Part shown: piece after piece, positions 36,888-57,840 of the stretch
How the letters are laid out: each line of letters begins with the position of its first letter
Numbering within the stretch: position 1 is the stretch's first letter
DNA from: Escherichia coli
GTDB lineage: Bacteria > Pseudomonadota > Gammaproteobacteria > Enterobacterales > Enterobacteriaceae
DNA: 64,000 nucleotides
NCBI RefSeq assembly: GCF_041248615.1
Contig: NZ_CP158426.1
Direction: 5' to 3' (one strand)
The notes under the pieces: model-generated
Databases searched by the model: none
What the model was told of the DNA's origin: nothing
What the model saw: the letters and a program-made list of their open reading frames with translations, nothing else
Position numbers and translations under genes: made by a program

Positions 36888-36888
36888 A

Positions 36889-42795: not shown

Positions 42796-42854
42796 GTCTT
42801 TCAATAAAATAATCATGTGATGCTATTAAATTACAATTCATTTAACTCATTGAG

Positions 42855-43943
42855 GTGCTAAGTATGCTTAATGGAAAAATATTATTCTCATTATTCATAT
42901 CATCGATAATATTATTATCAACGGCAAGCTATGCCAATAGTAGTGAGGTGAGTAAGACGATAAATGACCAAAATATGAAAAATACTGAAGAAATACCCAT
43001 AAAATTCAACCGTATTATTATCACCGGCAATTGCCCCTTTGGTGTAATTATGGCAAATGATTTGGCATATAAACATGTTGTGGGCGTAGGACCTTGGGCT
43101 TTTCTGCATTCAAACATGAAACTTCTCAAGGATATGAAGCCAGATATCGACCGTATCACTACTGACTTTATTAATAAAGACTATGTTGTAAATATGGAAT
43201 CCTTACTAAATTTACAACCAGATATTATTTACTATTATGGTAAAAGTCAGAATGATAATCTGCAGCGGGCAGGGATCCCAACTATTAATCTTGATGCTGG
43301 TGGTGACACGAAATTTGAGCCAGTAGTAACGCAAACGTATTGGGAAAACGAATTTAACCAGACGCTTGGTTTACCTCACAGTCACAAATTTTCGGATGCA
43401 TGGAAGAGAAGCCTCAATGAGGCAAAACCATATGCCGAGAAGATCAAATCACAACATATTCGGGCATTATATCTTGAGCAGAGTGATGGGAAAGAGCTCA
43501 AGGTGAGTGGGCCGAAAACATATGGTGATACCTATCTTAAGATGGCGGGGATGGAAAATGTAGCAAGTGATCTGGTGGTAAAAGGGGATGCTGGCAGGTA
43601 CATTAATGTTTCAATGGAGCAAATAATTCAGTGGGATCCCGATGTTGTATTTGTGGTCTTTGGTAGCGCGAAGGATATTCTTAATAATAAAAATCCCGGG
43701 CAAGATTGGCATAATGTTAAAGCATTCAAAGATGGGAAAATATTTTCTACACCCGTAGGACTACATAATTGGGGAGGATTGTCTGCTGAGACTTCGCTAT
43801 TACCATTGTTTATGATTAATAAATTTAACCCTGACTATATAACAGATGCAGAATTGAAAGTTGCAACGCGGTTACACTATAAAAAAGTGTTTGATTATGA
43901 AATTCCGGACGCGCTATTAACCGATGAGTTAAGACAGCGGTAA
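42855..43943 (+). CDS. ABC transporter periplasmic substrate-binding protein (iron-siderophore / B12 / heme type)
   Basis: Signal peptide; followed by FecCD-type permease and ATPase genes. Confidence 0.75.
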   Translation: MLSMLNGKILFSLFISSIILLSTASYANSSEVSKTINDQNMKNTEEIPIKFNRIIITGNCPFGVIMANDLAYKHVVGVGPWAFLHSNMKLLKDMKPDIDRITTDFINKDYVVNMESLLNLQPDIIYYYGKSQNDNLQRAGIPTINLDAGGDTKFEPVVTQTYWENEFNQTLGLPHSHKFSDAWKRSLNEAKPYAEKIKSQHIRALYLEQSDGKELKVSGPKTYGDTYLKMAGMENVASDLVVKGDAGRYINVSMEQIIQWDPDVVFVVFGSAKDILNNKNPGQDWHNVKAFKDGKIFSTPVGLHNWGGLSAETSLLPLFMINKFNPDYITDAELKVATRLHYKKVFDYEIPDALLTDELRQR

Positions 43944-43986
43944 TAAAGTAATTCGGCGAATAGGTTTTTATTTTTAAAGGTTAGTT

Positions 43987-45000
43987 ATGCAGGAAAGACA
44001 AAAATACCGCATGCTGATGTGGATTTCAATCGTATTGTTACTGATTGTGGCTATGATTTCTTTGTTCATAGGTCGCTATACATTATCTATCCCCGAAATA
44101 ATGACGGAGGTATTACATGATAATGGTCACCGTTGTTTGAGCGCAGGATTCTCGGTTATATGCAATCTACGGTTGCCAAGGATTATTGCCGTCATGATGG
44201 TAGGGGCAGGGCTATCAGTAGCAGGCGTGACGTATCAAGCGGTGTTGCGAAATGCACTGGCTAGCCCGGATGTGCTCGGTACATCTTCCGCCGCAGCGTT
44301 CGGCGCAGCACTTGGGATACTGCTAGGTTTTCCACTACAACTCAGCGCTTTTTCCTCTTTCTTCTTTGGCATTGTCAGCCTTTTATGCGTGATGGGACTT
44401 TGCCATTTCAAGAAAAACAATGGGGAGCTCACGACTATCCTGTCGGGCATCATAGTGGCTTCGGTGTTTATGTCTTTTGTATCAATCATTAAATATGTTG
44501 CCGATCCACAGGACGAACTCCCGGCTATCGTCTTCTGGCTTATGGGGAGTTTCGCTTCTCTGGTCAAAGAGCAGGTTTATGGACTCATCCCGCTATACAT
44601 CATTTGTTATCTGGCTATTTACAAACTTCGATGGAAAATCAATGTGTTGTCTTTGGGAAATGATGAGGCCAAAATTGCTGGAATGAACCCACAATTGTTG
44701 AATACAGTTTTGCTAATCACAGCCTCAATTTTGGTGGCAGCATCAGTCACCATCGCTGGCGTGGTGGGCTGGGTTGGTCTGGTTATCCCGCATCTGGTTA
44801 GAACGCTGGTCGGGTACAACCATAGCAAGCTGATCCCGGCTTCGGCTGTATGTGGTGCGTTGTTTTTATTGGTCATCGACAACATTGCCAGGACCCTGAC
44901 TTACGCAGAGATCCCCATTGGAATACTTACTGCTCTGGTTGGTGCGCCTTTATTTGCTGTACTGTTCATCATGAGTAACCGATATGATCGAAGTGAATAA
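43987..45000 (+). CDS. ABC transporter permease, FecCD family
   Basis: 337 aa polytopic; FecCD-like conserved region; overlaps ATPase gene start. Confidence 0.85.
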   Translation: MQERQKYRMLMWISIVLLLIVAMISLFIGRYTLSIPEIMTEVLHDNGHRCLSAGFSVICNLRLPRIIAVMMVGAGLSVAGVTYQAVLRNALASPDVLGTSSAAAFGAALGILLGFPLQLSAFSSFFFGIVSLLCVMGLCHFKKNNGELTTILSGIIVASVFMSFVSIIKYVADPQDELPAIVFWLMGSFASLVKEQVYGLIPLYIICYLAIYKLRWKINVLSLGNDEAKIAGMNPQLLNTVLLITASILVAASVTIAGVVGWVGLVIPHLVRTLVGYNHSKLIPASAVCGALFLLVIDNIARTLTYAEIPIGILTALVGAPLFAVLFIMSNRYDRSE

Positions 45001-45739
45001 TCTGACGTTCGCATTCAAAAAGAGTAAAACTGCCTTTAACAATATCAGCTTCTCCATTGATGAAGGTGAGGTACTGTGCGTATTAGGACCGAATGGTGTT
45101 GGCAAAACAACATTGCTTAAAACGGTTACCGGTCTGTATCAACCGGTTAGTGGCTCATGTCATATTGGCCGAGTGGGAAACCGGAAAGCTCGTATGGCGT
45201 ATGTCCCGCAGGCCAAACGTGTTCACTTTTCTTACAATGTACTCGATTTCATCTCCTTTGGGTGCCCATTACGGGGCGGAATGCTGGCATCTCCTGGGGC
45301 GAGGGACATCGAAAAAGCGGCGCGAATATTGTCGGGACTTGGCGCTTCATATCTTGCAACCAAAGACGTTAACCAGATAAGTGGAGGTGAACTACAGATG
45401 TGCTACATCGCGAAGGCGCTGGTCTCAGAGCCGGACATCCTTGTGCTTGATGAACCTGAATCAAATCTTGATTTTAATAATCAGTCTCTCATTATCAATT
45501 GGTTGCACACGTTGTCGCGAGAGAAAAAAGTTACTATTATCCTGAATACGCACTTCATCAATCATGCAAATAACATTGCAGATAAATGTTTGCTAATGGG
45601 AAAAGATAGTTACTGTTTTGGAACAACACAGAGTGTCTTACAAGAGTCTCTCCTCGCCGATTATTTCCATGTTCCCGTTAAACGCTGTCATTTTGAACAC
45701 AAAGGAATACAGAAAGAATCATTTATTGTTGCAGTGTGA
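44984..45739 (+). CDS. ABC transporter ATP-binding protein
   Basis: Walker A GPNGVGKTT; signature ISGGELQM; Walker B ILVLDEP. Confidence 0.9.
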   Translation: MIEVNNLTFAFKKSKTAFNNISFSIDEGEVLCVLGPNGVGKTTLLKTVTGLYQPVSGSCHIGRVGNRKARMAYVPQAKRVHFSYNVLDFISFGCPLRGGMLASPGARDIEKAARILSGLGASYLATKDVNQISGGELQMCYIAKALVSEPDILVLDEPESNLDFNNQSLIINWLHTLSREKKVTIILNTHFINHANNIADKCLLMGKDSYCFGTTQSVLQESLLADYFHVPVKRCHFEHKGIQKESFIVAV

Positions 45740-45934
45740 TAGGTAGCCAATATCGCAGAGAAAATAAGAATTGAGGAATTGTTTATTGCGAAACCGTGCG
45801 AGTAGATGGTAATTCTGGTAGGAATATCATTTACGATTGATCAATTTTCCCACGGACTATATGCGATAAAATAACTTTGTCGATGCATGAAATAGCAGCT
45901 TCATTTTGTTAAAAGTAATAATAAAGGTGTAATT

Positions 45935-46552
45935 ATGATTAAAAAATTCGTTGAAGAATATCTTAATCAGATCTACATAAAAAAATACTCAATTATTACT
46001 ATTAATTCTCTTGATGAAGCTTCAATTATATCTAATATGCCTCATTGTTGGGAGCGTGATTTTCTGAAAAGAGAGCTGCATCTTCGAAGTGATATTGTAT
46101 TGAAAGCTAGAAGTAAAATAACCCCCTTCAAATGGTCTTCTGTAAATGGTAATAATGAAGATCTTAAGGCTTTATCCAATAGGTATAATATTAGCAATGG
46201 GGTGACTTTTGTTATAAAAATAAAACATGATGTCGTGATCTTCACGATGTACTACAATGAGGATGATGAGGATTTCATAAGATACTACTCTAGAAAGAAA
46301 CATAAAATATTGTATGATGTTATGAGTCTTTTTGAATCCCATTATGAACAAACACCCAAACATGTATTCACTGTACGAGAAAAGGAAGTTATGAATTTGC
46401 TGAAGTTTGGAAAAACTTATATTGAAATAGCATTTATTCTTGGTGTAAGTGAAAGGACCGTCAGATTTCATATCAATAATATTCTTGATAAATTGAATGT
46501 GACATCAGTTCGTTATGCGATCTTTAAAGCAGCTTCCGAAGGTTTGATCTGA
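45935..46552 (+). CDS. LuxR/FixJ-family HTH transcriptional regulator
   Basis: C-terminal LuxR-type HTH REKEVMNLLKFGKTYIEIAFILGVSERTVRFHINNILDKL; AT-rich. Confidence 0.75.
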   Translation: MIKKFVEEYLNQIYIKKYSIITINSLDEASIISNMPHCWERDFLKRELHLRSDIVLKARSKITPFKWSSVNGNNEDLKALSNRYNISNGVTFVIKIKHDVVIFTMYYNEDDEDFIRYYSRKKHKILYDVMSLFESHYEQTPKHVFTVREKEVMNLLKFGKTYIEIAFILGVSERTVRFHINNILDKLNVTSVRYAIFKAASEGLI

Positions 46553-46572
46553 CAAGGTTTTCCTTGTCAGAT
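46545..46572. terminator. Perfect hairpin GATCTGACAAGG-TTTT-CCTTGTCAGATC at luxR-type gene 3' end
   Basis: 12-bp stem, 4-nt loop overlapping the stop codon. Confidence 0.6.
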
Positions 46573-46578
46573 CATCTA

Positions 46579-46836
46579 TCAATGACGATAGAATTCTGAA
46601 AGGCGTAATCTCAAGCCATCGGTATCAAATCCATGCGCCCGAATGTGTTCTTCTGGGGTCCAAAATTGTCTGAGCTCCTTTGGTTTTGCACCAATGGACA
46701 AGATTCTGTGAGGTATATCGGACAATGCCTCACCTATAGCATGAATTGTCGTTCCTTCTAGGTATGGTTAACCTAGCCGGTTTATTACTACATGTCGTGG
46801 CAACTCCAGCGGAGTACATAATAGTCCATTCAGCAT
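46579..46836 (-). pseudogene. Short interrupted ORF (about 85 codons with one in-frame TAA), possible gene remnant
   Basis: Hand translation MLNGLLCTPLELPRHVVINRLG*PYLEGTTIHAIGEALSDIPHRILSIGAKPKELRQFWTPEEHIRAHGFDTDGLRLRLSEFYRH; protein-like but interrupted. Confidence 0.3.
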
Positions 46837-46883
46837 TGTTACTTTTTGTGAACTAGACTGGAAAAGAACTGGGTCAAATCACA

Positions 46884-48158
46884 TTAAATGAAGATACGTA
46901 GGCCGACCGCCGCCAGATGATCTGATACATTATATGACGCATCAGTGTTACCGCTTGCTTTCTCATAACCGTATTCAATATAGGTCACTGCGTTTTTCCC
47001 CAGCCAGTAATCGGTACCCAGCGTGGTGGACTGGAAGTGTTGACCGTCCATCGCATCACCGCCTTCGGTCCAGTCAAAGTTGGCATAGACGCTCCACTCA
47101 GGGGTAATTTTGAACTGTGAGGCATATTCCAGACCCAGAATCGTTTCTTGGTCGTTAGTCTGTTTGCTGGCGCCGCTGGTTGCTGCCTGAACGTCATCAA
47201 CTTTGTTGATATAGTAAGTCGCTTGCGCGCCGTTATACCAGGTGAAACTATCAAAGCTGGTTGTGTACTTAGCGTTCATCCCCATCGAATAGGTATTACC
47301 GTCATATGAAGGGCCGGTCACCGTTGTAACTGGAACAGTACCACCGTGCGGACCTATGGGCACATCCGTGGTTATGGTACCCTGATTGACAGAATAGTTG
47401 TTATAAGCTGCCGTACCGGAAAGTGAGAAACCATTATCGAAGCGATATTGTGCTGCTAACGCAGCGCCGCCGTGAACAGTCGCGGAACCATCGTGGTACG
47501 CATCATGCATATCCGGTCCGTTGCCGTAACCGCTGCCAAAACCAATTTTATCGACATCGTCATTCCCTTGGCCCATTACACCCACCGTGAAGGCCTTGGT
47601 GTTGTAATAATAAATAACAGCCGAGTTAATAATATCGGTCGACATACCAGTGGTATCATGTTTGGCTTTGCCACCGTATGCATAGGTGGTATCAATTCCC
47701 AGCCCCCAGTCGGTTGGGGAATATTGCTTACCGAAAGTCACCACCCCATATTCATCATTACCTATCCCCGCATACGCCTGACGGGTATAAACATCGTTAC
47801 CCTGATTATCAGTTGCGGAATCCAGACCGTGTATGCCAGTTTCATAATAACCTGCTGCGTAATAGCCTTTGTCATTAATATTGTGTCGTAGTGCGACACC
47901 CAGACGTGAGTCGTTGTTTTGTATATTATGTTCTACACTGTGCGCTGAATCGTTCTTTGCCATGAGACGTAAGGATCCCATAACTGAAATGGCTGTATCA
48001 TCATTTTGATAAATCATCTCCCCCTTGGTCTGTGTAGCAGTATATGCTGGAGCCGTATGTTCCCCGCTACTCACCTGTGCACAGGCAGGTGCGACTATTG
48101 CTGCAGTAATAAGCGGAGCAACAATAAATGGTTTAAGTCTTATATATTTTACGTGCAT
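46884..48158 (-). CDS. Outer-membrane porin-like beta-barrel protein
   Basis: Signal peptide MHVKYIRLKPFIVAPLITAAIVAPACAQ; Gly/Tyr/Asn/Thr-rich barrel-like composition; start at internal ATG of track ORF. Confidence 0.7.
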   Translation of the reverse strand: MHVKYIRLKPFIVAPLITAAIVAPACAQVSSGEHTAPAYTATQTKGEMIYQNDDTAISVMGSLRLMAKNDSAHSVEHNIQNNDSRLGVALRHNINDKGYYAAGYYETGIHGLDSATDNQGNDVYTRQAYAGIGNDEYGVVTFGKQYSPTDWGLGIDTTYAYGGKAKHDTTGMSTDIINSAVIYYYNTKAFTVGVMGQGNDDVDKIGFGSGYGNGPDMHDAYHDGSATVHGGAALAAQYRFDNGFSLSGTAAYNNYSVNQGTITTDVPIGPHGGTVPVTTVTGPSYDGNTYSMGMNAKYTTSFDSFTWYNGAQATYYINKVDDVQAATSGASKQTNDQETILGLEYASQFKITPEWSVYANFDWTEGGDAMDGQHFQSTTLGTDYWLGKNAVTYIEYGYEKASGNTDASYNVSDHLAAVGLRIFI

Positions 48159-48422
48159 AGAAACCCCATGATCATTGTTTAAGTTCATTTTTAGAGTGTT
48201 TTTTAAATATGGAGAGTCTATTAAAAGCTTTTGAATATAAAATAAAACTGTCAGTTCTGACAGGAGTGTTTTTTATTTTCAATTAAATTATTAAGCATTT
48301 TTTCGGAGATGTGGGTTTTTTACACGGTATTAGCGAAACGGTTTGCCATGTAGTTTGGACAAAGTAAAAAGCCGCATCAGTCTGCACTGATGCGGCTTTG
48401 ATTTGTCAGGGTGACTAAATCA

Positions 48423-49694
48423 CTAGCCAGCTTGAAGCGTCGTTTTTCCTCTCCCCAGTATGTAGGGCGGTACATAGGATTTGCGGCAAGTATCCAGATA
48501 ATCCGACCACCACTGCATCATTGCCTTTCTTGCTTCCAGATGCTCTGCTCTGTGAATATATGCCTGGCGTACGGAGTTACGTTCCTGGTGGCTCATTTGC
48601 CGTTCAACAGCATCCTGTGACCATATACTGGATTCCATAAGGGCACTGCATGCCATTGTCCTGAAACCGTGACCACAGATTTCCATTTTCGTATCCCAGC
48701 CCATCAGGCGTAGCGCCTTGTTCACCGTATTTTCACACATGGGTTTATACGGATTATGGTCCCCGGGGAACACGAGTGCATTATCTCCTGAGATATCCTT
48801 AATCTTTTTCAAGATCGCGATCGACTGTTGTGAGAGGGGTACGATATGAGGCCTGCGCATTTTGGCACCACGACCAGAGTAACGCACGCCTTCAATAGCT
48901 TCGCGCGTGGCGGGTATTGTCCAGACCTGGTTTCCGAAATCAATTTCATGCCAGCGGGCAAAACGCAATTCACTCGAGCGAATGAACAGATGCAGTGTTA
49001 GCAGGATGGCAAGGCGAGTGAGTTCACGGCACTGCTGAAAACTCTCAATGCTCTCAAGCAGTTCTGGAAGACGCTCCAGTGGTAGAGCGGGGTAGTGTCG
49101 TTTTACTGGTGGAGCCGTCACTCCGTCAAGGTTTGCTGCCGGATTAAAATCGATTAATCCATGATGCACGGCGTAGCGCATGATATTCCGGAGGTGCTGG
49201 CGTGTACGGGATGCAACTTCCAGGAGACCCTTTTCCTCAATTCCTTTTAATAAAGTGATGAAATGGCGGGGTTTCAGTTCTGAAACTGACATGGTGCCAA
49301 TGACTGGGAAGATATGATTATTCATGCTGGCGAGCAAACGGTCGGCGGTGTTCTCTGACCATTTTTTATTGCTCTTGTGCCATGCAAGTGCAACGTTTCT
49401 AAACACTTTCTTTGGCATGCGAGAACTGCGTTCGGCTGCTCGCTGCTCTGCTGGATTGATGTTCAGTACCAGCATTTTGCGAATACCTTCACGTTGACTA
49501 CGGGCGTCTGAGAGGGAGATGACTGGGTAGGCACCGAGTGCAATACGTGATTCTTTACCCTTAATACGGTACTTGAGATACCAGTGACGTGAACCGCCAG
49601 GTTTGACCAAGAGATACAGACCGTGGGAATCGGAAACTTTAAAGGGTTTATCAGATGGTTTGAGACTGCGGATTTTGGTGTCGGTAAGAGACAT
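48423..49694 (-). CDS. int: P4-type tyrosine integrase (tRNA-adjacent)
   Basis: 423 aa; N-terminal arm-binding-like region, C-terminal catalytic domain; 161 nt from tRNA-Asn 3' end. Confidence 0.9.
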   Translation of the reverse strand: MSLTDTKIRSLKPSDKPFKVSDSHGLYLLVKPGGSRHWYLKYRIKGKESRIALGAYPVISLSDARSQREGIRKMLVLNINPAEQRAAERSSRMPKKVFRNVALAWHKSNKKWSENTADRLLASMNNHIFPVIGTMSVSELKPRHFITLLKGIEEKGLLEVASRTRQHLRNIMRYAVHHGLIDFNPAANLDGVTAPPVKRHYPALPLERLPELLESIESFQQCRELTRLAILLTLHLFIRSSELRFARWHEIDFGNQVWTIPATREAIEGVRYSGRGAKMRRPHIVPLSQQSIAILKKIKDISGDNALVFPGDHNPYKPMCENTVNKALRLMGWDTKMEICGHGFRTMACSALMESSIWSQDAVERQMSHQERNSVRQAYIHRAEHLEARKAMMQWWSDYLDTCRKSYVPPYILGRGKTTLQAG

Positions 49695-49855
49695 ATGGGG
49701 TCACTCCATAATAGAACGAACCGGACCCCAGATTTGACCACCAATTTTTCCCGATGCGGAGGATAAAATCAAAATGCATCAGGAGAAGTTTTCACGCTAA
49801 GCTGTTGTATTAAAACCATAGAGGCATTAATGAATGCTGCACGAAAACAAGAATT

Positions 49856-49931
49856 TGGCTCCTCTGACTGGACTCGAACCAGTGACATACGGATTAACAG
49901 TCCGCCGTTCTACCGACTGAACTACAGAGGA
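49856..49931 (-). tRNA. asnT: tRNA-Asn (anticodon GUU)
   Basis: Reverse complement reads TCCTCTGTAGTTCAGTCGGTAGAACGGCGGACTGTTAATCCGTATGTCACTGGTTCGAGTCCAGTCAGAGGAGCCA; matches recalled E. coli tRNA-Asn; next to mtfA as at the E. coli asnT locus. Confidence 0.95.
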
Positions 49932-50031
49932 ATCGTGTGAACGGGGCGCATATTACTTAGCGGTACCTTGTCTGTCAACACTAAATTTCATAAGCCATTT
50001 CAATTGGTTAATTAATCTGCAAAGTTGTTAA

Positions 50032-50829
50032 TTAATGAACATTCGTCGCCGAAAACGAGTCTGTATCATTAGCGTGATGCAGTCTCTGCAAAGGATCTTG
50101 TTGATAAAATTGGCAGAAACGTTGCCACAATGAAGGGAAACGAGGAGCAAAAAGTTCTGGGGCGCTAAAGAAATATTCAGAAAGTACGGCAAAACACTCA
50201 GCAGGATCACTGGCAGCATAAGCATCGATGCTCGCCGCATTCTCGCCAACTAATTCGATTTCTTCCTGAATGTTGTTCATTGCAGCATGAAGATCGTGTT
50301 CCCAGCTAGCAACCTCACGCAACGGAATAAAGGGAACTCCGCTGGCGCGATCGCCGTTACGGGTGTCCAGCTTATGAGCGACTTCATGAATAATCAGGTT
50401 AAAACCAGAAGCATCAAAAGAATCTTGTATATCCAACCAGTTCAAAACGATAGGCCCTTGCTGCCAGCTCTGACCTGACTGAACAATACGTTGGTTATGC
50501 ACCAGACCGATATCGTCTTCCCATTCGTCATCGACCACAAATGGCGCAGGATAAATTAAGACTTCATGAAAACCATCCAGCCATTCCAGTCCTAACTCCA
50601 GAACGGGCAGGCAAAATAGAAGTGCTATCCGGCAGCTTCTTAATGAATCCAGTTCAAAGCCCTGTAAAGGAACAAGCCGCTTTTGCTGTAAAAAACGTTC
50701 GGCAAGAGTGACTAATTTGCTTTGTTCCTGTTCCGTCAGACACGTTAAAAGGGGGATCGATAGTGCTTCCTGCCAGGGAAGGGCAGTTTGATGTGCTGAT
50801 TCTTGTACTTTCCAGGGCCACTTAATCAT
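50032..50829 (-). CDS. mtfA: Mlc titration factor A (zinc-dependent peptidase MtfA)
   Basis: 265 aa from [13 protein letters not shown]; HEVAH zinc-binding motif; conserved position between serU and asnT. Confidence 0.9.
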
Positions 50830-50922
50830 CGTTTTGCTCGCAAACTCGTCACTTGAACAAAATTGCACGGACAGGGACTGTTAAAATGCCAAATTTCCTG
50901 GCATCATGGCAACCATCTGAAC

Positions 50923-51012
50923 GGAGAGATGCCGGAGCGGCTGAACGGACCGGTCTCGAAAACCGGAGTGGGGGCAACTCCACCGGGGGTTCAAATCCCC
51001 CTCTCTCCGCCA
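50923..51012 (+). tRNA. serU: tRNA-Ser (anticodon CGA)
   Basis: 90-nt GGAGAGATGCCGGAGCGGCTGAACGGACCGGTCTCGAAAACCGG...CCCCCTCTCTCCGCCA with long variable arm. Confidence 0.9.
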
Positions 51013-51064
51013 AAATTCAATCACTTACACATCATTAAGTCAGTGACAAAAATCACACTTGGAA

Positions 51065-52090
51065 TTACTTGGAATATTTTCTTGGAATATTTTCAGGTAA
51101 CGGGACATCAAGTGTTGGTGAAACTTTAACCTTCCTGTCATAGATTAGCACTTGCCCTTCGGTTTTGTGACCAGAGAAAAGTTGCTTATCCCGGCTGCTT
51201 CCTTCATAGTCTGAAATTCCTTTCGCCTTCAGATCATGAAAGGTGAAGTCGGTTAAAATACCTGAAATTTTTCCAGCACGATTTCTTGCATCTACCCACA
51301 TTTCGTTAAAGCCTTTGTACATATATCGGTTGCCGTATTGATTGCTGATCACATAGGCAGATTTTGGTAACTGTTTTGCTTTTTCGATCGCTGCCTGTAA
51401 TCGTGGACTCCATGCTTTTATCTGTTTTTTTCCGGTTTTCCCTTGCTGGATGAATATCCCGTCGTTTCCAATCTGTTCCCATTTCAGCGATAACACATCG
51501 GAAACCCTCGCTGCACACAGATAGGCAATTTCCATTGCGATAAAAACAGGAAGAGGTGCAACGCTTAATACTGCCTGGTATTCTTTGTCGGTTACATATC
51601 GTTCGCGGTTTTTGGCCTTGAATTTACTTACACCTGCACATGGGTTAGCCTTCACGTACCCTCGCTCATACCCCCAACTGTAAACACGGGACATACTGCT
51701 TTTTTCATGGTTGGCTTGCGTTTTACTCTGCTCCCCTCTTTTGTCCATGTATCGACGGATGTGTTCTGGTTTTATGGAATCCGCTGGTACCTTACCGAAT
51801 ACGGCAAGCAACTTTTTTTGATGTTGCAGATAATCTTTTTGTGTTCTTGGACTAAGGTCACTGTAATAGGCGCTGGCGAGGAATTTTTCCCACAAGCGAC
51901 CGAATGTCATTGCACGATCGCGATTATTTACAGTTTCCTCATACTTTTTCCATAAAGCAGCTAAACCATCCTTGATGGCGGTTAGTGTGACAGATTCTCT
52001 GGATGTTGGTTTCCATACATAACTATATTTATTTGGGTATACATTTGGAGGTAATTTTTCGTGTTCAGGATTTTTCCTTCGTCTTCCCAT
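51065..52090 (-). CDS. int: Phage tyrosine integrase (lambdoid prophage, serU-adjacent)
   Basis: 341 aa; 52 nt downstream of serU 3' end; followed by excisionase. Confidence 0.9.
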   Translation of the reverse strand: MGRRRKNPEHEKLPPNVYPNKYSYVWKPTSRESVTLTAIKDGLAALWKKYEETVNNRDRAMTFGRLWEKFLASAYYSDLSPRTQKDYLQHQKKLLAVFGKVPADSIKPEHIRRYMDKRGEQSKTQANHEKSSMSRVYSWGYERGYVKANPCAGVSKFKAKNRERYVTDKEYQAVLSVAPLPVFIAMEIAYLCAARVSDVLSLKWEQIGNDGIFIQQGKTGKKQIKAWSPRLQAAIEKAKQLPKSAYVISNQYGNRYMYKGFNEMWVDARNRAGKISGILTDFTFHDLKAKGISDYEGSSRDKQLFSGHKTEGQVLIYDRKVKVSPTLDVPLPENIPRKYSK

Positions 52091-52293
52091 CAGATCGCAC
52101 CAAAATTCGGCTCTACCTCGCGTGGTGGTAAAGTTTTATTGCAGGTAAATAGATCCCGGCTGACAATCGGTTTGCCACTACGATTGGTATAGAACGGAAG
52201 CCCGTTTTCCATTAACCATTTTCGCTGGTGGCTTGCATATTTGCAGCCCGTTAATATTAGCAATTCATCTTCGGTTAAAAATAAGCTGCTCAT
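52090..52293 (-). CDS. xis: Excisionase-like protein
   Basis: 67 aa; immediately upstream of integrase with 1-nt overlap. Confidence 0.65.
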   Translation of the reverse strand: MSSLFLTEDELLILTGCKYASHQRKWLMENGLPFYTNRSGKPIVSRDLFTCNKTLPPREVEPNFGAI

Positions 52294-52351
52294 AGCTATA
52301 TCTCATAACCGCCGCTAACTATATACGGTTAGCGGCAATTAGGGTTGAACA

Positions 52352-54793
52352 TTAAAAATCAGCCTGACTCGGGATCAGTTTTTGCCAGATAGCTGAAACG
52401 TATTTTGCCTGGTAACGAGCGTCATCAAGTGCATTATGGCGCTCACCTTCGAATGGAATAGCCGTTCTGGCATCGAAGTCTATGGCTTTCCCCAGCTCAA
52501 CGATTGTGCGTACATCGCGATCGTTGTAGTAACGCCACGGGCAGGGGATCCCCTGCCGTTCGTATGAACGGCGCAAAATCGTGTTGTCGAAGTTGGCTCC
52601 ATTTCCCCAAACCTGAACAAAAAATTCACCGGAGTTTTCGTCGATAAATTCCCGCAATTGTAACAGTGCATCATCTAACGGGATTTCATCGGTCATAATG
52701 GCAGATTGCGCTTCGCGTGATTGCTTAAGCCACCATTTAATGGTGTCCCGATCAATGACTCCGCCAGCAGTTTCCAGATCGATAGTCTTACTAAATTCCG
52801 GTCCCATATCTCCGGTTTGCGGATCGAAAAATATTGCACCTATTGAGATGATCGGGGCATCAGGATTTTTTCCCATGGTTTCAAGGTCGATCATTAGATG
52901 GTCACACGTCCTGCTGGTGGATGTGATTTCGTGATGACCGTTCACCTTAATTGGGTGATCTGCCGTCTCGCCAGTTTTATTATCGCTGGCGTGATGCTGA
53001 TTGCCGCCAGGGTTCTCCTTGTGTGGATGTTCAGCGCCTTCCATTTCCTCCGGATCATTTTCCTGAACTTCAACCTGATTCTCTTCATCGAATGTTTCCT
53101 GGTATGTTGCGTCGCCCATCACCGCGCCACAATCAGGGCAGTTGCCGCCACCGCTCTGACCGCAGGCGGTGCAGACTTTTTCCGGTTCCTGTTGCGCTAC
53201 TGGTTCGGATTGTTTCGTTTCTGGCTCGTTTTGTAACGCATTTGGGCTGTTTTGTTCCGCTTTTTGGTCGTTCCGTTCCGATTCATGCTGGTTCTGGTTC
53301 ACAGAATCGCGAGTCTGGATCCCCTTGACCCATTTCGGATCATTAGGGTCGCTAATCCCCTCAACAAATTCACCACGCGATACAGCAAGTAACTTATCGG
53401 CGTCAGGCTGGCTGATATTGGCTGCCTGCATAATTTTGTTTACTTCGTCAGCGGTGACTTTTACTTGGTTAGCGGAACTCACCTGCGACTGAGCATCCAG
53501 CGACTGCGCGTTCTGGCCATGTTCAGTTGTATCCGGTTCCATTGTTTCAGTTGTTGCCTGTTCACCTGCCATTGCGTCAGATGGTTGTGGTTTTTCTTCT
53601 TCTGTTTCACGCTCAGTAACCACCTCGCGGTTAATTTCTTCCAGGATATCTTTTTCCGGCGTATGCCGGGCAGCTGTGAGAGTTTCCTTGCTGGGGTTCT
53701 CGTGATCAGTTTCCGTCAAATAGGCGTTGATATACCCCTGAAGGCGTCCCGGGTAGTGATAAAATTCAGGGTGTGCGCTTCGGATAAGTGCAAAAATAGC
53801 GGCGCGGGAATAGTCCAGAATACCCGGGGTTGCACGAAGTGCTGCGGACCATTCTTTGAACGGACTTTCTTTGTTCAGGACTACTTCTTTTGCGCGACGA
53901 TAAACGCTGCCCGGAATTTCATAAATATTAAAATCCATCGGAAGTGTGGCTGCTGCAATCTCCACATCCAGTGTGTCGAGGGTGTGTACTAAATTCGGAT
54001 TGCGATCGGTTTTGTTCCCACCGCCAGCATTAGCACCGGAAGCCGTGCGGGTGATGCGTGAAACACGATTTCCTTTCATCCACTCTTTTGTCAGCAGACC
54101 CCGATCAGTGTAGTCAGCGTCCAGGTATGCTTCGAAAAAAGCAGTTATTAGTCCCAGGTCTGAATTACCAGGATTAGGGAAAACTTTGTCAGTGTCACGA
54201 ACCAGTTTGTGGAGGTCGCGAATCTCCAGCGAGTCGAGCAGACTGGTTTTATGCGAAATAGCCAGGGCAGTAACAGCCGGTAGTTCTTCAGCCCGTGCAA
54301 TGTGTAATGCCTGGAGTTCGTCGCGTGAAACGTGCGTTACTGGTTTTTCGCTGCCGTGTTGAGCAAGCCAACGAATGGGCAGTTCCTGACCGGAGACAGG
54401 CAGAAGCATGCTCTCCTCAATCTCAGTCATGTCTTCGCCGTTGATGTTGGTATTGTCAGTGCTGGCTGGTTTGTCCTGAACAGAGGGGGAAGGGCCGATA
54501 AATGTCATTGTGATGCCATCTTTCCCGCCTTTTTCATAGCGGTTGCAGAATTCAGTATCAAACACGCCTTCTGGCGGAAGGTCGTCAACAACGGGCAAAT
54601 TGACGCGGACGGGTTTTTTAAAGTCGTCTTCATCATAATCGTTGTCATCCATTGCGGTAATGCAGCGGGAGATTGCAACAGATAATTTTTTTGCTGTAGT
54701 CCAGTAAAAACCACCTTTAATTCCCAGGCGTTTTCTTACTTTGTCATTTTTTGCTTCGCAATATAGTGCAAATTCTTCTTTATCAGTGCTCAT
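52352..54793 (-). CDS. Prophage exonuclease with C-terminal DEDD-type 3'-5' exonuclease domain
   Basis: C-terminal motifs [32 protein letters not shown] (DnaQ-like Exo I-III); central zinc-ribbon CTACGQ...CPDCG; 813 aa. Confidence 0.65.
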
Positions 54794-54886
54794 TATTGGT
54801 AAACCTCATCACAGATTTAAGGGTGAACAAATCTCTGCCATTGCTGACATATAAGAATGAAACTGGATATTTATTACGGTGCTGTT

Positions 54887-55078
54887 TTAAAATCCTGCCG
54901 GGATTTCGTTATTATCCTGGTGAATAACTTTATCGACCGGATAACAGTTGCCTGGAATTTTCTGTTCGGTTGCTGCTGCCATACATTCCTGCTTTGTTCT
55001 GTGAACACTGACTGCAATATCAACTGGCCCTCCGGAAACAAGAAAAACCGTCAGAATAAGTGCAAATACTGGATTCAT
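54887..55078 (-). CDS. ydfD: YdfD-like small prophage protein
   Basis: 63-aa product from MNPVFALILTVFLVSGG; ATGA overlap with dicB stop. Confidence 0.6.
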   Translation of the reverse strand: MNPVFALILTVFLVSGGPVDIAVSVHRTKQECMAAATEQKIPGNCYPVDKVIHQDNNEIPAGF

Positions 55079-55263
55079 TGTGCACATCCTTTTGGCATCA
55101 GACGTAAACGGGCCAGCATTGAAACAATGCATACTTTATTTAATAACTCCCGTTCGTGTTTTCTTTTGTTAATGGCATCTTCAGTAAATACAGGATTACT
55201 GATAGTGACACCAATTTCAAAACAACCTTCAGACGTATTAACGTTTGGTAATAACGTTTTCAT
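55075..55263 (-). CDS. dicB: Cell division inhibitor DicB
   Basis: 62-aa product MKTLLPNVNTSEGCFEIGVTISNPVFTEDAINKRK...MLARLRLMPKGCAQ matching recalled DicB. Confidence 0.8.
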   Translation of the reverse strand: MKTLLPNVNTSEGCFEIGVTISNPVFTEDAINKRKHERELLNKVCIVSMLARLRLMPKGCAQ

Positions 55264-55437
55264 TATCGCGCCCTCAACAATGAGTTTTGTGATGCGGTGC
55301 CTGGTGCCTCCAGGTGACGTTAACCAGTTAACAATTAACGCCGGATACAGAGAATCCACCCATAACACTGTTTTTGGTTTTAACTGTTCCGCGTGCGCTT
55401 AGCCGCATTCACCGCATCACAAAATTCACTTTAAAAA

Positions 55438-55490
55438 GGGCGGCAGAGCAGTCACGGAGTAAAACTGATACCGCCAAACGTCACCAGAAA
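55438..55490 (-). ncRNA. dicF: DicF small regulatory RNA
   Basis: Minus-strand sequence TTTCTGGTGACGTTTGGCGGTATCAGTTTTACTCCGTGACTGCTCTGCCGCCC followed by a T-run; matches recalled DicF; lies between ydfC and dicB. Confidence 0.8.
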
Positions 55491-55830
55491 ATTGATAACA
55501 GAGGGCGTTGCAGCGGGGTTGTCACTTAAGCGTATGGTCAACCTGACAACCCGGTGTCCTCAACGGGGAAGGAATAACCCCGCCATACTTACCGCCGCGC
55601 CATTTCGCGGAGTGCCACAACCGGAAGCGCACGGTCGACGAAAATTTAACGACAGGCTATCTATGAACCAGCTACCTCGCCGTGCGCTTTCGCGTTATGG
55701 TCTGACTTTTCAGGGAAATATCCTTTCAGTAAACTGTCAGTGCCGGATGCTCACCCGTGTCCGGCGCACGCACTCCACCTCACCCGTGGAGAACTCCTTA
55801 ATTACCAACCTTAGCTTCGTTGGTTAGCTA

Positions 55831-56049
55831 TTAACGCGGGTATGTAATCATTCTGGCAATGCTTAATGCCGCTGCTTTTTCCAGATTGGTGATATCCTGC
55901 TCCAGAGCGGACAGATTTTCAGCCTGCTTAGCCCTGGCTTCATTAGCCCATTTCAGATCCTGCGCTGCATTAATTTTCTGGCGCATCCACTCATAAAGTT
56001 CATCATCGGTATAGTCTGGCGCGATTATGACGGGTTCTCGTTTCTGCAT
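55831..56049 (-). CDS. ydfC: YdfC-like prophage protein
   Basis: 72-aa ORF upstream of dicF in the dicB operon. Confidence 0.6.
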   Translation of the reverse strand: MQKREPVIIAPDYTDDELYEWMRQKINAAQDLKWANEARAKQAENLSALEQDITNLEKAAALSIARMITYPR

Positions 56050-56078
56050 ACTGATTCCTCGCGGTGCTACTTCGCTTA

Positions 56079-56207
56079 TCAGCCGTTAGATTTTGCCGAG
56101 CTGGAAAGCGCCTGTTTAAACTCACTGAAGCTGAGAGCTTCTTCGCCTTCGGCAAGGTCTTCGAAGTATTCTTCGTAAGCCTTTTCCATGATTGTGTCGA
56201 AATCCAT
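56079..56207 (-). CDS. ydfB: YdfB-like small protein, 42 aa (not in ORF track)
   Basis: Hand-translated MDFDTIMEKAYEEYFEDLAEGEEALSFSEFKQALSSSAKSNG. Confidence 0.5.
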   Translation of the reverse strand: MDFDTIMEKAYEEYFEDLAEGEEALSFSEFKQALSSSAKSNG

Positions 56208-56208
56208 A

Positions 56209-56364
56209 TCACTCACCTGAGTTTCTTTCCAGCCAGCGACGGGCACCATTTTCGGTTTTAAACGTTTTGCTTTTGGTATACGTCATCGCGGTGAACGTGC
56301 CGTCCTGGTTGGGAAACACGCCGTACACCAGAGATTCGTTGTTGCCAAGATCGATAGTATCCAT
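56209..56364 (-). CDS. ydfA: YdfA-like small protein, 51 aa
   Basis: Internal start MDTIDLGNNESLVYGVFPNQDG within track ORF 56209..56445; start choice uncertain. Confidence 0.45.
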   Translation of the reverse strand: MDTIDLGNNESLVYGVFPNQDGTFTAMTYTKSKTFKTENGARRWLERNSGE

Positions 56365-56629
56365 GCTGACCTCATTTCCCCTTAACGCCGGGGTAGCGGA
56401 ACAAAAACCTGCTGCATAGTTATTAAAGTTGAACCCTGCCGTCATGTTCTTACGCCTCGGGCTGGCTACTTAACCCCTGACCACTGCCTGGTAACTCGAA
56501 GTATTGCCCTGCATTCTGTGGGGCGGGGTGGGTTGGTATGAAAAGAAGGATACCCATAGGTATTTAAAAAGTAAATACCCATGGGTAACTTTTTGCGGTG
56601 TCTTAACTGGTGACTAGTTGTTTGGTGAG

Positions 56630-57049
56630 CTATGATGCGTTTTGTGCTTTCTTTTTACGGATTTCTTCGTAGATCATATTGTAATACTGTTTTTTCTCTT
56701 CAAGAGTTTTTAATAAGTTATCCGCTTCACTTTCTGGCAGTTCGTCTAAGAGATCTAAAAAAATACGTTGTCGTGGCGTTAGAACCCTTGTTTCATAACT
56801 GGAGGCTGTGTTCGTTGATGATGAAACGATACCATCCATCCATCCCCGGGGTAACCCAAAGGACTCTTCGATAATCTCCACCATATCATCAGCGATCCGT
56901 TTTTTTCCCTTTTTCCCCTCTGGGTACAACATTCTTGATACATAAGAAGGCTCGCGCCCGATCTTTCTGGCCACGTTAACCGCTTTACCATCGCATTTCT
57001 CATCACGAATTTTGATGAGTTGCTGTCGTCTAAATTCATATTTGTCCAT
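56630..57049 (-). CDS. Prophage repressor-like HTH protein (XRE/CI-like)
   Basis: 139 aa; HTH-like NVARKIGREPSYVSRML; divergent from Cro-like gene. Confidence 0.6.
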   Translation of the reverse strand: MDKYEFRRQQLIKIRDEKCDGKAVNVARKIGREPSYVSRMLYPEGKKGKKRIADDMVEIIEESFGLPRGWMDGIVSSSTNTASSYETRVLTPRQRIFLDLLDELPESEADNLLKTLEEKKQYYNMIYEEIRKKKAQNAS

Positions 57050-57149
57050 AGGTAAATAATAGATGCGATTACCGCAAGGTAAACAACCTGTGGGTATTGA
57101 CTTTTGTTTACCTGCGGGTATTCTTTACTGTGTTTACTAAGGAGTAGCT

Positions 57150-57431
57150 ATGGAAGAATTAAGAATATTTCTCAATTCTCTTTCGTCAGATGAACAGCGT
57201 ATGTTTGCATGCGAGTGTGGTACCAGCATCGGTTATCTAAGAAAGGCATTGAGTAAAGGTCAAGTGTTAGGGGCATCGTTATGTGTCCTTATTGAGCGAG
57301 CCAGTAATGGTGAAGTTACACGTCAGCAACTAAGGCCTTTTGATTGGATGAATATTTGGCCCGAGCTGGAAGATACCAAAACGTTAACACAACCACTTTC
57401 TAGGAGCTTGATTCATGAAAATCAAGCATGA
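57150..57431 (+). CDS. Cro-like / YdaS-family small regulator
   Basis: 93 aa; divergent from repressor; followed by YdaT-like gene, as in Rac-type immunity regions. Confidence 0.55.
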   Translation: MEELRIFLNSLSSDEQRMFACECGTSIGYLRKALSKGQVLGASLCVLIERASNGEVTRQQLRPFDWMNIWPELEDTKTLTQPLSRSLIHENQA

Positions 57432-57840
57432 ACACATCCGCATGGCGATGAATGCCTGGGCGCATCCGGACGGTGAAAAAGTTCCGGCAGCTGAAATAAC
57501 CAGGGCTTATTTTGAACTGGGTATGACGTTCCCAGAACTGTATGACGACAGCCATCCGGAAGCCCTGGCTCGCAATACCCAGAAAATTTTCCGCTGGGTA
57601 GAGAAAGACACCCCTGATGCAGTTGAAAAAATTCAGGCGTTGTTACCAGCGATCGAAAAGGCAATGCCACCTTTGCTGGTGGCCAGAATGCGCAGCCACA
57701 GTTCAGCTTATTTTCGGGAACTGGTGGAGACGCGGGAGCGACTGGTGAGAGACGCTGATGATTTTGTCGCAGTGGCAATCGCCGGTTTCAATCAGATGAA
57801 CCGTGGTGGCCCGGCAGGAAATGCTGTGGCAGTACATTGA
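57415..57840 (+). CDS. YdaT-family prophage protein
   Basis: N-terminus MKIKHEHI resembles recalled YdaT; 141 aa. Confidence 0.6.
   Translation: MKIKHEHIRMAMNAWAHPDGEKVPAAEITRAYFELGMTFPELYDDSHPEALARNTQKIFRWVEKDTPDAVEKIQALLPAIEKAMPPLLVARMRSHSSAYFRELVETRERLVRDADDFVAVAIAGFNQMNRGGPAGNAVAVH

Follow-up and report, generated by a model that had tools for sequence, protein, structure and literature searches.

In this Escherichia coli chromosome, mtfA stands between two tRNA genes, each of which has an integrase gene of a different type at its 3' side. This arrangement raises the question of whether two separate mobile elements are integrated back-to-back, where they end, and whether they could still move. 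The window, i.e. the whole analysed stretch of 64,000 nt, has a 100% match on the chromosome of E. coli NRZ14408 (NZ_LT599825.1; window position 1 equals record position 2,083,672), and the flanks beyond the window were read on that record. In our assessment, an ICE at asnT and a lambdoid prophage at serU are probably two independent, structurally complete site-specific elements that point away from mtfA in opposite directions. We put the probability at roughly 0.85, a joint figure for the whole two-element explanation, including the family of the ICE, the type of the prophage and the crossover in serU.

Over the whole window, ARAGORN called exactly two tRNA genes, Asn(GTT) and Ser(CGA) (Table 1). 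The order in K-12 is serU-mtfA-asnT with both sites empty and, judged from this comparison, mtfA is a core chromosomal gene that is part of neither element. The gap between the ICE and the prophage is only 1.06 kb. The initial annotation had regarded both tRNA genes as intact, and the calls bear this out: asnT equals the K-12 gene, and serU takes a normal tRNA fold with two compensatory differences from K-12. It had also placed a P4-type integrase beside the 3' end of tRNA-Asn and a lambdoid integrase with an excisionase beside that of serU. Accordingly, a 423-aa ORF with P4-type domains was found to begin 161 nt past the tRNA-Asn 3' end on the same strand, and a 341-aa integrase 53 nt past serU, followed by an ORF matching PHROG 1266. 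The description of both tRNA genes as integration hotspots agrees with the presence of a serU prophage junction in 1,154 of 5,426 complete E. coli genomes (21%) and of both integrases in 9% of them.

Table 1. Features of the mtfA locus, in window coordinates unless otherwise stated
Feature	Position	Strand	Basis or remark
Distal ICE repeat	record 2,081,780-2,081,801		between yeeJ and the island
asnT ICE, in-window part	1..49871	-	distal repeat and K-12 empty-site comparison
IS3-family insertion, downstream of mobC	18427..19755	+	transposase annotated; specific to the NRZ14408 ICE copy, missing in the YF-1 copy
MobC-family relaxase	20343-21095	-	MobC_subf NF041423, 361 bits (cut-off 200)
Coupling protein	21107-23002	-	domain-level matches only: TrwB_AAD_bind, T4SS-DNA_transf
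Candidate oriT location	23003-23709		0.7-kb gap upstream of the coupling-protein gene
VirB-type T4SS module (VirB1-like transglycosylase through VirB11, Cag12, TrbM)	24064..36040	-	PGAP annotation
AlpA-family protein, candidate ICE excisionase	37479..37664	-	Pfam Phage_AlpA, E=2e-25; PHROG 2790 'excisionase and transcriptional regulator'
ICE P4-type tyrosine integrase, 423 aa	48423..49694	-	WP_172408808.1; Pfam Arm-DNA-bind_3, Phage_int_M, Phage_integrase
tRNA-to-int leader, 161 nt	49695..49855	-	three predicted stem-loops
Proximal ICE att repeat AGAATTTGGCTCCTCTGACTGG	49850..49871		16 3'-terminal nt of tRNA-Asn and 6 nt downstream
ICE att core 17-mer TTGGCTCCTCTGACTGG	49855-49871		exact at both element ends; 22 bp identity in all
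tRNA-Asn(GTT), asnT	49856-49931	-	ARAGORN; intact
Sigma-70-like promoter, TTGACA-17-TAATAT	49950..49978	-	just upstream of asnT; consensus match only
mtfA	50032-50829	-	Peptidase_M90, E=1.7e-60
tRNA-Ser(CGA), serU	50923-51012	+	ARAGORN; intact; hybrid gene (putative)
Prophage att repeat, 62 bp (tRNA positions 29-90)	50951..51012	+	distal copy at 44161-44222 of flank segment L002, K-12 allele
Lambdoid prophage, in-window part	50951..64000	+	att repeats and annotation; ends at window-equivalent 92,222
P' arm repeats, three TTGGAAT motifs	51059..51093		include a 13-nt tandem duplication that overlaps the last int codons
Prophage tyrosine integrase, 341 aa, catalytic Tyr317	51065..52090	-	Sp14/ST64B type
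Excisionase candidate, 67 aa	52090..52293	-	Pfam DUF4224; PHROG 1266 'excisionase', E=3e-21

A search of the whole window found no second copy of either tRNA 3' end. The distal att repeats had been expected outside the window, and a direct repeat was indeed found beyond it for both elements. To the left, the ICE runs on for 1.9 kb past the window edge, up to its distal repeat, and is 51.7 kb long, and the K-12 empty site rebuilds both of its junctions exactly. The prophage is 41.2 kb long; 28.2 kb past the right end of the window comes its distal 62-bp tRNA-Ser fragment, which is followed by the sequence found downstream of serU in K-12. The proposal that the att sites are the tRNA 3' ends holds in part: both tRNA-proximal junctions are att sites, but the prophage repeat spans tRNA positions 29-90, with the crossover probably in the anticodon stem-loop. 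As for the labels attR (ICE) and attL (prophage) that had been given to these junctions, they vary with orientation; under the customary naming, attL is the junction next to int, and this applies to both elements.

The name ICE, already used in the initial annotation, is justified because a full VirB-type T4SS, a coupling protein and a MobC relaxase are all there. VirB11 scored 295 bits against a cut-off of 250, and VirB4 scored 609 bits, slightly under the subfamily cut-off of 643; no gene of the conjugation module carries a PGAP pseudogene flag. The AlpA-family protein is 85% identical to its counterpart in strain EC-129. It would assist in excision, and the relaxase, coupling protein and T4SS would then carry out the transfer. 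The int-adjacent slot between int and the conjugation module (window 38988-48158) holds a 9-kb low-GC (41.6%) cargo encoding two porins, a LuxR regulator, a FecCD-type ABC importer, an MFS transporter and AmiA, and no ybt, irp or fyuA gene is annotated in it. In strain A38, a fuller variant of the ICE adds to the same slot a biosynthetic cluster of AfsA-like, ACP, ketosynthase, HAD and transketolase genes. The variable region encodes UbiD/UbiX, GH16/GT32, ArdC and an ABC-three-component defence system, and an IS3 pseudogene and an integrase remnant are also present in the ICE.

The ICE integrase shares 82% amino acid identity with that of the EC-129 yersiniabactin ICE, and the identical protein is encoded at asnV in strains YF-1 and 2018-06-4CC. 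The enzyme would recombine the 17-bp core, a sequence equal to the 3' end of tRNA-Asn, with any one of the four asn genes, which are identical, and integration would keep the tRNA intact while leaving a 17-22-bp direct repeat at the far end. The leader between asnT and int has the length of the EC-129 spacer and is identical to it at 131 of 161 positions. Its predicted RNA fold has an energy of -45.8 kcal/mol (z = -2.77), and no terminator-like site was found within these 161 nt (49695..49855). In ICEKp1, the spacing between tRNA and int is likewise 161 bp, int is transcribed from the tRNA promoter, and all four asn sites are usable (PMC13023037). By analogy with ICEKp1, int of the asnT ICE may be read through from the asnT promoter across the structured leader, since integration removes the tRNA's own downstream sequence; the sigma-70-like site upstream of asnT is a candidate driver of this read-through.

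These features place the element beside ICEEc1 (the HPI-ICE of E. coli ECOR31/ED1a) and ICEKp1/ICEKp of Klebsiella pneumoniae. Common to them are the P4-type integrase 161 bp from a co-oriented tRNA-Asn, the 17-bp direct repeat of the tRNA 3' end and the use of more than one asn gene (PMC13023037), as well as the backbone order of int, cargo slot, hypothetical protein, AlpA, DUF2857, TraR, VirB1-11, Cag12, TrbM, coupling protein, MobC and variable region. Compared with the ybt-carrying ICE of EC-129, the backbone is colinear at 44-88% amino acid identity, yet its proteins are clearly diverged (Int 82%, DUF2857 44%). The yersiniabactin locus characteristic of ICEEc1 and ICEKp (ybtS to fyuA, ~29 kb) is missing from the asnT ICE. 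Therefore, the backbone is common, but the asnT element is no 'yersiniabactin ICE'; it is a further, yersiniabactin-less member of the already known ICEEc1/ICEKp family. The non-conjugative HPI, the pks island and GIE492 likewise have asn target genes, a P4-type integrase and a short direct repeat; however, they are without a conjugation module, whereas the asnT ICE has a complete one. Several different islands are known to use the asn tDNAs as insertion hotspots (PMC4891358). On the NRZ14408 chromosome, a second, decayed island with flanking repeats was observed at asnW.

At the other side of mtfA, the allele pattern of serU bears on how the prophage entered. The working serU has G48/C59 in five lysogens (NRZ14408, E9, an O157:H7 strain, F1 E4 and Sakai), while K-12 serU and every displaced distal copy have A48/T59; non-lysogens overwhelmingly have the K-12 pattern. 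In the complete genomes of phages Chris1 and ST64B, attP consists of tRNA-Ser positions 29-90 directly downstream of int, and the anticodon stem-loop CGGTCTCGAAAACCG is the only part conserved without change in every attP and attB sequence. We infer that the crossover occurred within 50951-50969, in the anticodon stem-loop. The attP of the prophage would have been a 62-bp copy of tRNA-Ser positions 29-90 and, with strand exchange in the anticodon stem-loop, the 3' two-thirds of serU would have been replaced by the phage copy. With the phage copy, the compensatory variable-arm pair G48/C59 would have come in, and the original 3' part with A48/T59 would have been pushed to the far end. On this pattern, serU is evidently a hybrid gene, with positions 1-28 bacterial and positions 48-90 phage-derived (G48/C59).

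The prophage integrase was flagged by PGAP as frameshifted. In the alignment with the Pfam catalytic domain, its Tyr317 falls at the domain end, and the P' arm contains a 13-nt tandem duplication, CTTGGAATATTTT, at 51068-51080 and 51081-51093; strain F1 E4 is without this duplication and its int is annotated as intact. The 'frameshift' thus appears to be a harmless 13-nt duplication, which changes only residues past the conserved SPTLD, in the family-variable tail. Close to the distal junction, the P arm has motifs that match those of the P' arm (positions 44050 and 44114 of flank segment L002). The annotated genes comprise a full early, lysis, HK97-type head and lambda-type tail set in which int carries the sole pseudogene flag, and the gene set looks complete from this annotation. 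A peptidase-domain match was sought in the repressor candidate (139 aa) and none was found, which makes SOS inducibility doubtful.

The closest comparison is Sp14 of O157:H7 Sakai (CP-933U of EDL933), which occupies the same site, yodB side / serU (PMC8190617). The integrases are identical at 331 of 341 residues (97%) and end in the same C-terminal tail. The two P' arms do not differ, the early regions with xis, exonuclease and dicB resemble each other, and Sp14 has the same G48/C59 hybrid serU with an A/T distal fragment. In contrast, the P arm, the cargo, the head module (HK97-type in the NRZ14408 prophage) and the immunity region differ; Sp14 has espJ and tccP beside attR, which the NRZ14408 prophage does not, and, unlike the latter, it has IS629 and split tail genes. 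A circular form of Sp14 was detected experimentally, with weak circularisation, and its Xis was judged probably non-functional (PMC2669165). Salmonella phage ST64B and Citrobacter phage Chris1 have an integrase of the same family (58-59% amino acid identity, conserved FHDLKAKGISDYEG...VYDRKV..SPTLD) and an att of the same extent, their attP lying 65-115 nt downstream of int; the rest of their genomes is different, and the ST64B attP is distinct in the sequence of the variable arm and the T arm.

Among E. coli yersiniabactin islands most are fixed remnants, as are many O157 prophages, and one or both elements at mtfA could likewise be bounded but past excision or transfer. The frameshift call on the serU integrase, the extra IS3, the IS3 pseudogene and the integrase remnant of the ICE would fit such a state, as would the weak circularisation of the Sp14 relative and its Xis, judged defective (PMC2669165). 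However, both pairs of att repeats are intact, the 'frameshift' is confined to a non-conserved tail that is common to the integrase of the circularising Sp14, no conjugation gene is flagged as a pseudogene, and this ICE also occupies a second asn gene and recurs at ~98% identity in two other genera. We consider decay to this degree unlikely, and excision, conjugation and induction may still take place today. It is much less credible still that the ICE and the prophage form one composite or functionally coupled unit, such as an island mobilised by the prophage, or a pair with mtfA as shared cargo. Apart from their adjacency, 1.06 kb apart, what speaks for it is that two GenBank 'phage' records span the prophage, serU, mtfA and asnT and run into the integrase of the neighbouring island; these are over-extended prophage predictions, because they are labelled partial genomes and contain host genes. 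The ICE is present without the prophage at asnV in YF-1 and 2018-06-4CC, E9, an O157:H7 strain and Sakai have the prophage while their asnT is unoccupied, and in K-12 the serU-mtfA-asnT segment is core DNA in which neither site is occupied.

A further alternative concerns serU alone: G48/C59 versus A48/T59 might be an ordinary host polymorphism, with the crossover at the extreme tRNA 3' end and the tRNA-like sequence of the P arm phage-borne and of K-12 type by chance. In strain AB56, serU is unoccupied, carries the G/C allele and has a K-12-type flank, so that the allele is imperfectly tied to current lysogeny, and 551 genomes fall into an intermediate identity class that was sampled in part. 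Nevertheless, AB56 could have lost a prophage by homologous recombination within the repeat's 31-bp 3' block, which would account for its allele. Moreover, all five lysogens, which belong to unrelated lineages, combine a G/C working gene with an A/T displaced copy, most non-lysogens have A/T, and in phages ev099 and mEp332 fossil attR copies are present in which an A/T fragment is joined to bacterial flank. The ST64B attP differs from serU throughout positions 44-90 and matches it perfectly only in the anticodon stem-loop. Host polymorphism is therefore improbable, and replacement of the 3' part of serU by the phage copy is preferred.

Two independent elements are thus the favoured reading, and for the ICE the question extends to its spread. 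In YF-1 and 2018-06-4CC, an ICE 99.8-99.9% identical to that of NRZ14408 lies between ldtA and asnV; the ends of the asnV copy and of the NRZ14408 asnT copy are base-for-base identical, and the chromosomal flanks are different. ICE segments of ~98% identity occur in Citrobacter gillenii and, beside tRNA-Asn, in Yersinia artesiana. Its occurrence at both asnT and asnV, together with these closely similar copies in Citrobacter and Yersinia, indicates on sequence grounds that the ICE has moved recently. It was present in only about 4 of the 5,426 complete E. coli genomes, and only two independent integrations in E. coli are certain, because YF-1 and 2018-06-4CC may share one ancestral asnV insertion. 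The arrangement at mtfA is real but ordinary, being made up of insertions at two well-known hotspots. More tentatively, and at somewhat less than even odds, the asnT ICE may represent an ICEEc1/ICEKp lineage without yersiniabactin that is undescribed and still mobile today, moving among Escherichia, Citrobacter and Yersinia, with a cargo slot encoding a new LuxR-regulated system for small-molecule uptake or signalling.

ARAGORN found two tRNA genes in the 64-kb window, and, as listed in the table below, an integrase gene lies beside the 3' end of each, with mtfA between them. The initial annotation had described a P4-type integrase at tRNA-Asn and an integrase with an excisionase at serU around mtfA, and this description was accurate to the base. 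The int gene of the asnT ICE, the conjugative element at tRNA-Asn, starts 161 nt past the tRNA 3' end, to its left and in the same orientation. In the serU prophage, the lambdoid element at tRNA-Ser, the gene for the DUF4224 protein is followed by that for a RecE-like exonuclease.

Features at the asnT-mtfA-serU locus (window positions) and gene content of the asnT ICE, the latter taken from annotation and profile searches and listed from the tRNA inwards
Feature	Position	Strand or orientation	Basis or content
ICE integrase, 423 aa	48423-49694	same strand as tRNA-Asn	Arm-DNA-bind_3 + Phage_int_M + Phage_integrase, P4-type set
asnT, tRNA-Asn(GTT)	49856-49931	-	ARAGORN
mtfA, between both tRNAs	50032-50829	-	Peptidase_M90 match
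serU, tRNA-Ser(CGA)	50923-51012	+	ARAGORN
Prophage tyrosine integrase, 341 aa	51065-52090	converging on tRNA-Ser, 53 nt past its 3' end	
DUF4224 protein, 67 aa, after prophage integrase	52090-52293		excisionase PHROG match, E=3e-21
ICE cargo block, 9 kb, after int			two porins, LuxR-type regulator, FecCD-type ABC importer, MFS transporter, AmiA
ICE, after cargo			hypothetical gene, AlpA-family protein, DUF2857, TraR
ICE T4SS			VirB1 to VirB11, plus Cag12 and TrbM
ICE mobilisation pair			coupling protein and MobC-family relaxase (NF041423, 361 bits against a cut-off of 200)
ICE variable region			hchA, GH16/GT32, integrase remnant, ArdC, LysR-UbiD-UbiX, ABC-three-component defence system, ComEC-like gene, IS3 pseudogene

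Within the window, a search allowing up to 3 mismatches found no second copy of either tRNA 3' end. The flanks were read in the annotated chromosome of E. coli NRZ14408 (NZ_LT599825.1), which is 100% identical to the window and in which window position 1 is position 2,083,672; K-12, in which serU, mtfA and asnT adjoin one another with neither site occupied, was the empty-site reference. When direct repeats of each tRNA 3' end were sought in the NRZ14408 chromosome, both distal copies were found, outside the window as the initial annotation had expected. The ICE repeat is the 17-mer TTGGCTCCTCTGACTGG, the tRNA-Asn 3' end plus one base, and its distal copy lies 1.9 kb left of the window (41786-41802 of L003, the NRZ14408 stretch to the left); the two copies are identical over 22 bp in all. 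To the left of the distal copy is K-12 asnT-downstream sequence (the yeeJ upstream region, 97% identical), and to its right the island starts. The asnT element is a bounded ICE of 51.7 kb, and the annotation holds no pseudogene flags among its conjugation genes.

The 'ABC-three component system' of the ICE variable region (window 1423-6380) is annotated as being of the defence type and comprises three genes, including one for a 1,045-aa AAA ATPase; the ComEC/Rec2-like gene lies nearby, and the ArdC anti-restriction homologue lies further inside the element (window 12413-13357). Between hchA and mobC, approximately 590 bp downstream of mobC, sits an intact IS3-family element (window 18427-19755) whose transposase has a programmed frameshift; it is present in the NRZ14408 copy of the ICE only. 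NRZ14408 also has a third element outside the window, a 10.6-kb decayed island at asnW (L003 16870-27498; record 2,056,869-2,067,497), which is flanked by the same 17-bp Asn repeat and contains a frameshifted P4-type integrase, a second integrase fragment and an RHS core protein.

The serU 3' region recurs 28.2 kb past the window, at 44161-44222 of L002, the NRZ14408 stretch to the right (window-equivalent 92161-92222), where it is followed by K-12 serU-downstream sequence. The element is 41.2 kb long with a full annotated gene set (early genes, Q, lysis, terminase, HK97-type head and lambda-type tail). It is a bounded lambdoid prophage whose att exceeds the tRNA 3' end; the proposal that the att sites are the tRNA 3' ends thus held for the ICE, and for serU it had to be enlarged to tRNA positions 29-90. 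Four tRNA genes (Ile, Lys, Thr, Gly) were observed downstream of the Q antiterminator of the serU prophage (L002 17401-17710; window-equivalent 65401-65710); in the corresponding position, Sp14, a prophage of strain Sakai, has another set (Arg, Arg, Ile). K-12 and Sakai have yodB between serU and zinT, but NRZ14408 and AB56 lack it; in NRZ14408, approximately 450 nt past the prophage attR, 222 nt stand in place of about 1 kb of K-12 sequence (L002 44669-44891; window-equivalent 92669-92891).

The 62-bp prophage repeat has mismatches at two positions, 48 and 59, which are a mutual pair in the variable arm of tRNA-Ser. In NRZ14408, the working serU carries G48/C59, and the displaced distal copy carries A48/T59, as does K-12; the same G48/C59 working and A48/T59 displaced copies were found in E9, an O157:H7 strain, F1 E4 and Sakai. 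These alleles could be read as host polymorphism, with the crossover at the tRNA 3' end, and the G/C allele at the empty serU site of strain AB56 favours such a reading. It was nevertheless contradicted by the distribution of the alleles between lysogens and non-lysogens and by the comparison of phage attP sites. The junction of the tRNA with the P' arm was present in 1,154 of the 5,426 complete genomes, and the K-12-type alignment was found in the great majority of the non-lysogens in this set. The integrases of the complete phages Chris1 and ST64B belong to the same family (58-59% aa identity), and shortly past int each of these genomes has an attP that is a tRNA-Ser copy spanning precisely positions 29-90. 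Furthermore, the anticodon stem-loop CGGTCTCGAAAACCG is the only block invariant across all attP and attB sites compared. From these alignments we concluded that the serU prophage crossover would fall within tRNA positions 29-47 and that the phage would provide the 3' two-thirds of the functional serU. At the AB56 site (NZ_OZ547614.1; L014 1501-1720), G48/C59 adjoins a downstream flank of K-12 type, which probably reflects the loss of a prophage through homologous recombination in the 3' block of the repeat; the 551 genomes of the intermediate identity class may include more such cases.

The P' arm contains three TTGGAAT motifs and the P arm two, in keeping with arm-type Int sites. The attP predicted in silico for the serU prophage was contiguous in no phage record searched, and true attP sites came only from ST64B and Chris1, which are more distant. 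Apparent attP matches in two bona fide lambdoid phages, ev099 (NC_049953.1) and mEp332 (PV340541.1), were rejected, being attR-type junctions with bacterial flank: at approximately 2500-2850 of L013 (ev099) and of L012 (mEp332), the P arm is followed by a 62-nt K-12-type tRNA-Ser fragment and serU-downstream bacterial sequence, and beyond the junction lie an AraC regulator, transposases and a different integrase that belongs to the phage itself. The junction looks like a retained fossil of imprecise excision, with capture of host DNA.

PGAP labels the serU integrase as frameshifted in three strains: NRZ14408, E9 and an O157:H7 strain. The label arises from a 13-nt tandem duplication of CTTGGAATATTTT (51068-51080 and 51081-51093) within the P'-arm repeats, and these repeats extend over the final codons of the integrase gene; in F1 E4, which does not have the duplication, the integrase is annotated as intact. 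The duplication changes the integrase end from ...PSNSKCDFCH to ...PRKYSK, and the altered tail starts 19 residues past the catalytic Tyr317, beyond SPTLD, the last conserved motif, after which family members differ. Sp14 of Sakai occupies the same site, serU, according to both the Sakai annotation and a published assignment (PMC8190617), and its integrase is 97% identical with the same tail as in NRZ14408; the P' arm and the hybrid serU are also the same. A circular form of Sp14 has been detected experimentally at a low level (PMC2669165). Since only the variable tail is altered and the same tail occurs in the circularising Sp14, the frameshift label is no evidence of inactivation of the prophage integrase, and behind the repeated annotation of a 'frameshifted integrase' at serU is a benign polymorphism of a 13-nt repeat. 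The motif HDLK, where HxxR is typical, was likewise rejected as a mark of an inactive integrase; complete phages also conserve it in their integrases, which makes it a family trait.

The backbone of the asnT ICE was colinear, gene for gene, with that of the classical yersiniabactin ICE at asnV of strain EC-129, with protein identities of 44-88% (Int 82%, AlpA 85%, VirB4 85%, VirB11 88%, coupling protein 78%). The spacer between tRNA and int is 161 nt in both and 81% identical. However, the NRZ14408 element does not have the yersiniabactin locus that defines ICEEc1/ICEKp elements. It is thus not a yersiniabactin ICE; it shares the ICEEc1/ICEKp backbone, of which it is a new yersiniabactin-less member, and very probably, by analogy, the same mechanism. 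In ICEKp1, int also lies 161 bp downstream of tRNA-Asn, any of four asn genes can be attB, and the tRNA terminator is displaced on integration, so that int is transcribed from the tRNA promoter via a structured 5' leader (PMC13023037, 2026). At asnT, a promoter-like site (TTGACA-17-TAATAT) lies upstream of the tRNA gene, no terminator-like site was found between tRNA-Asn and int, and the leader between them is predicted to fold into three stem-loops (-45.8 kcal/mol, z = -2.77). This geometry fits the ICEKp1 read-through model, under which the ICE int would be transcribed from the asnT promoter through the structured leader. A simple terminator scan gave no canonical hairpin immediately adjacent to the distal asnT repeat; the closest was about 265 nt away, so that for asnT the 'displaced terminator' of the model is not demonstrated.

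Among the 5,426 complete genomes, the conjugation module and cargo of the ICE were present at >=99.8% identity in only three other records, and at approximately 95-96% identity in strain A38. In YF-1 and 2018-06-4CC, which have an identical integrase protein, the element is inserted at asnV instead of asnT, with ldtA on its other side. Whole-element comparison gave 99.8-99.9% identity, with base-for-base identical ends and different chromosomal flanks, and the NRZ14408 copy carries one 1.3-kb IS3 more (window about 18427-19755). In an inter-genus scan of one genome per species, Citrobacter gillenii and Yersinia artesiana had the cargo MFS protein at 100% aa identity, along with segments of 10-14 kb at about 98% nt identity to the ICE; Yersinia artesiana keeps int, the spacer and the tRNA-Asn junction. 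The asnT and asnV insertions and these copies imply that the ICE, as judged from sequence, has integrated at least twice in E. coli and appears to have crossed genus boundaries recently.

The copy in Yersinia artesiana IP42281 (L022 2275-16084) is probably a decayed derivative despite its 97-98% identity, because it is rearranged, the segment with LuxR and the int-proximal porin (window 45751-48356) is missing, and most of the T4SS is non-contiguous. In the 96%-identical variant of A38 (NZ_CP028738.1; L006 15680-21550), an extra cluster absent from the NRZ14408 ICE lies between the LuxR gene and the int-proximal porin. It encodes an AfsA-related hotdog protein, an ACP, a ketosynthase, an HAD hydrolase, an MFS protein and a split transketolase, and could specify a butyrolactone-like signal or a small-molecule pathway paired with the LuxR regulator and the transporters. 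Elsewhere in A38 (L018 1780-2200), the ICE integrase is followed by a 24-nt tRNA-Asn 3'-end stub and then a DUF6387/HTH element; in SCAID URN1-2021 (L015 1591-3099), such an element, identified by annotation, stands directly after an intact K-12-type serU. These patterns suggest tandem or secondary-site integration, or rearrangement between islands.

Two other readings of the locus were weighed. That one or both elements are fixed remnants is disfavoured by the intact repeats of both, by their intact machinery, and by the second insertion site and the inter-genus copies of the ICE. A single composite element is excluded, because the ICE and the prophage each occur alone in other genomes. The observation of two elements back to back is confirmed, and its interpretation, with the serU att refined, is supported.

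Both elements are of known kinds. The 3.87-kb segment with both integrases around mtfA was covered at >=80% in 488 of the 5,426 complete genomes (9%), most of which carry at asnT an 88%-identical integrase of the type that accompanies the yersiniabactin island. The description of both tRNA genes as integration hotspots agrees with this count and with published work, in which asn tDNAs receive several islands (PMC4891358) and serU receives prophages, including Stx phages (PMC8065619, PMC7067040). The two-element arrangement is unremarkable, and rarity is limited to this particular ICE. Two 'phage' records with 100% identical integrases, ON470583.1 (vB_EcoS-689R5) and ON470580.1 (vB_EcoM-606R7), were considered as evidence of attP or induction and rejected. 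Both contain serU, mtfA, asnT and the integrase of the neighbouring island, and one of them also ybtS; they prove neither attP nor induction because they are partial prophage predictions with host and island genes. Adjoining tRNA hotspots can thus mislead the calling of prophage boundaries, with host and island genes being deposited as 'phage' sequence.

The finding that both elements of a clinical mcr-1/KPC-2 E. coli isolate have intact ends and plausible mobility machinery is of modest value. About one fifth of complete E. coli genomes would have a serU tRNA whose 3' two-thirds were supplied by a prophage. Furthermore, the ICEEc1/ICEKp backbone, best known as the yersiniabactin vehicle, also circulates among genera with an entirely different cargo.
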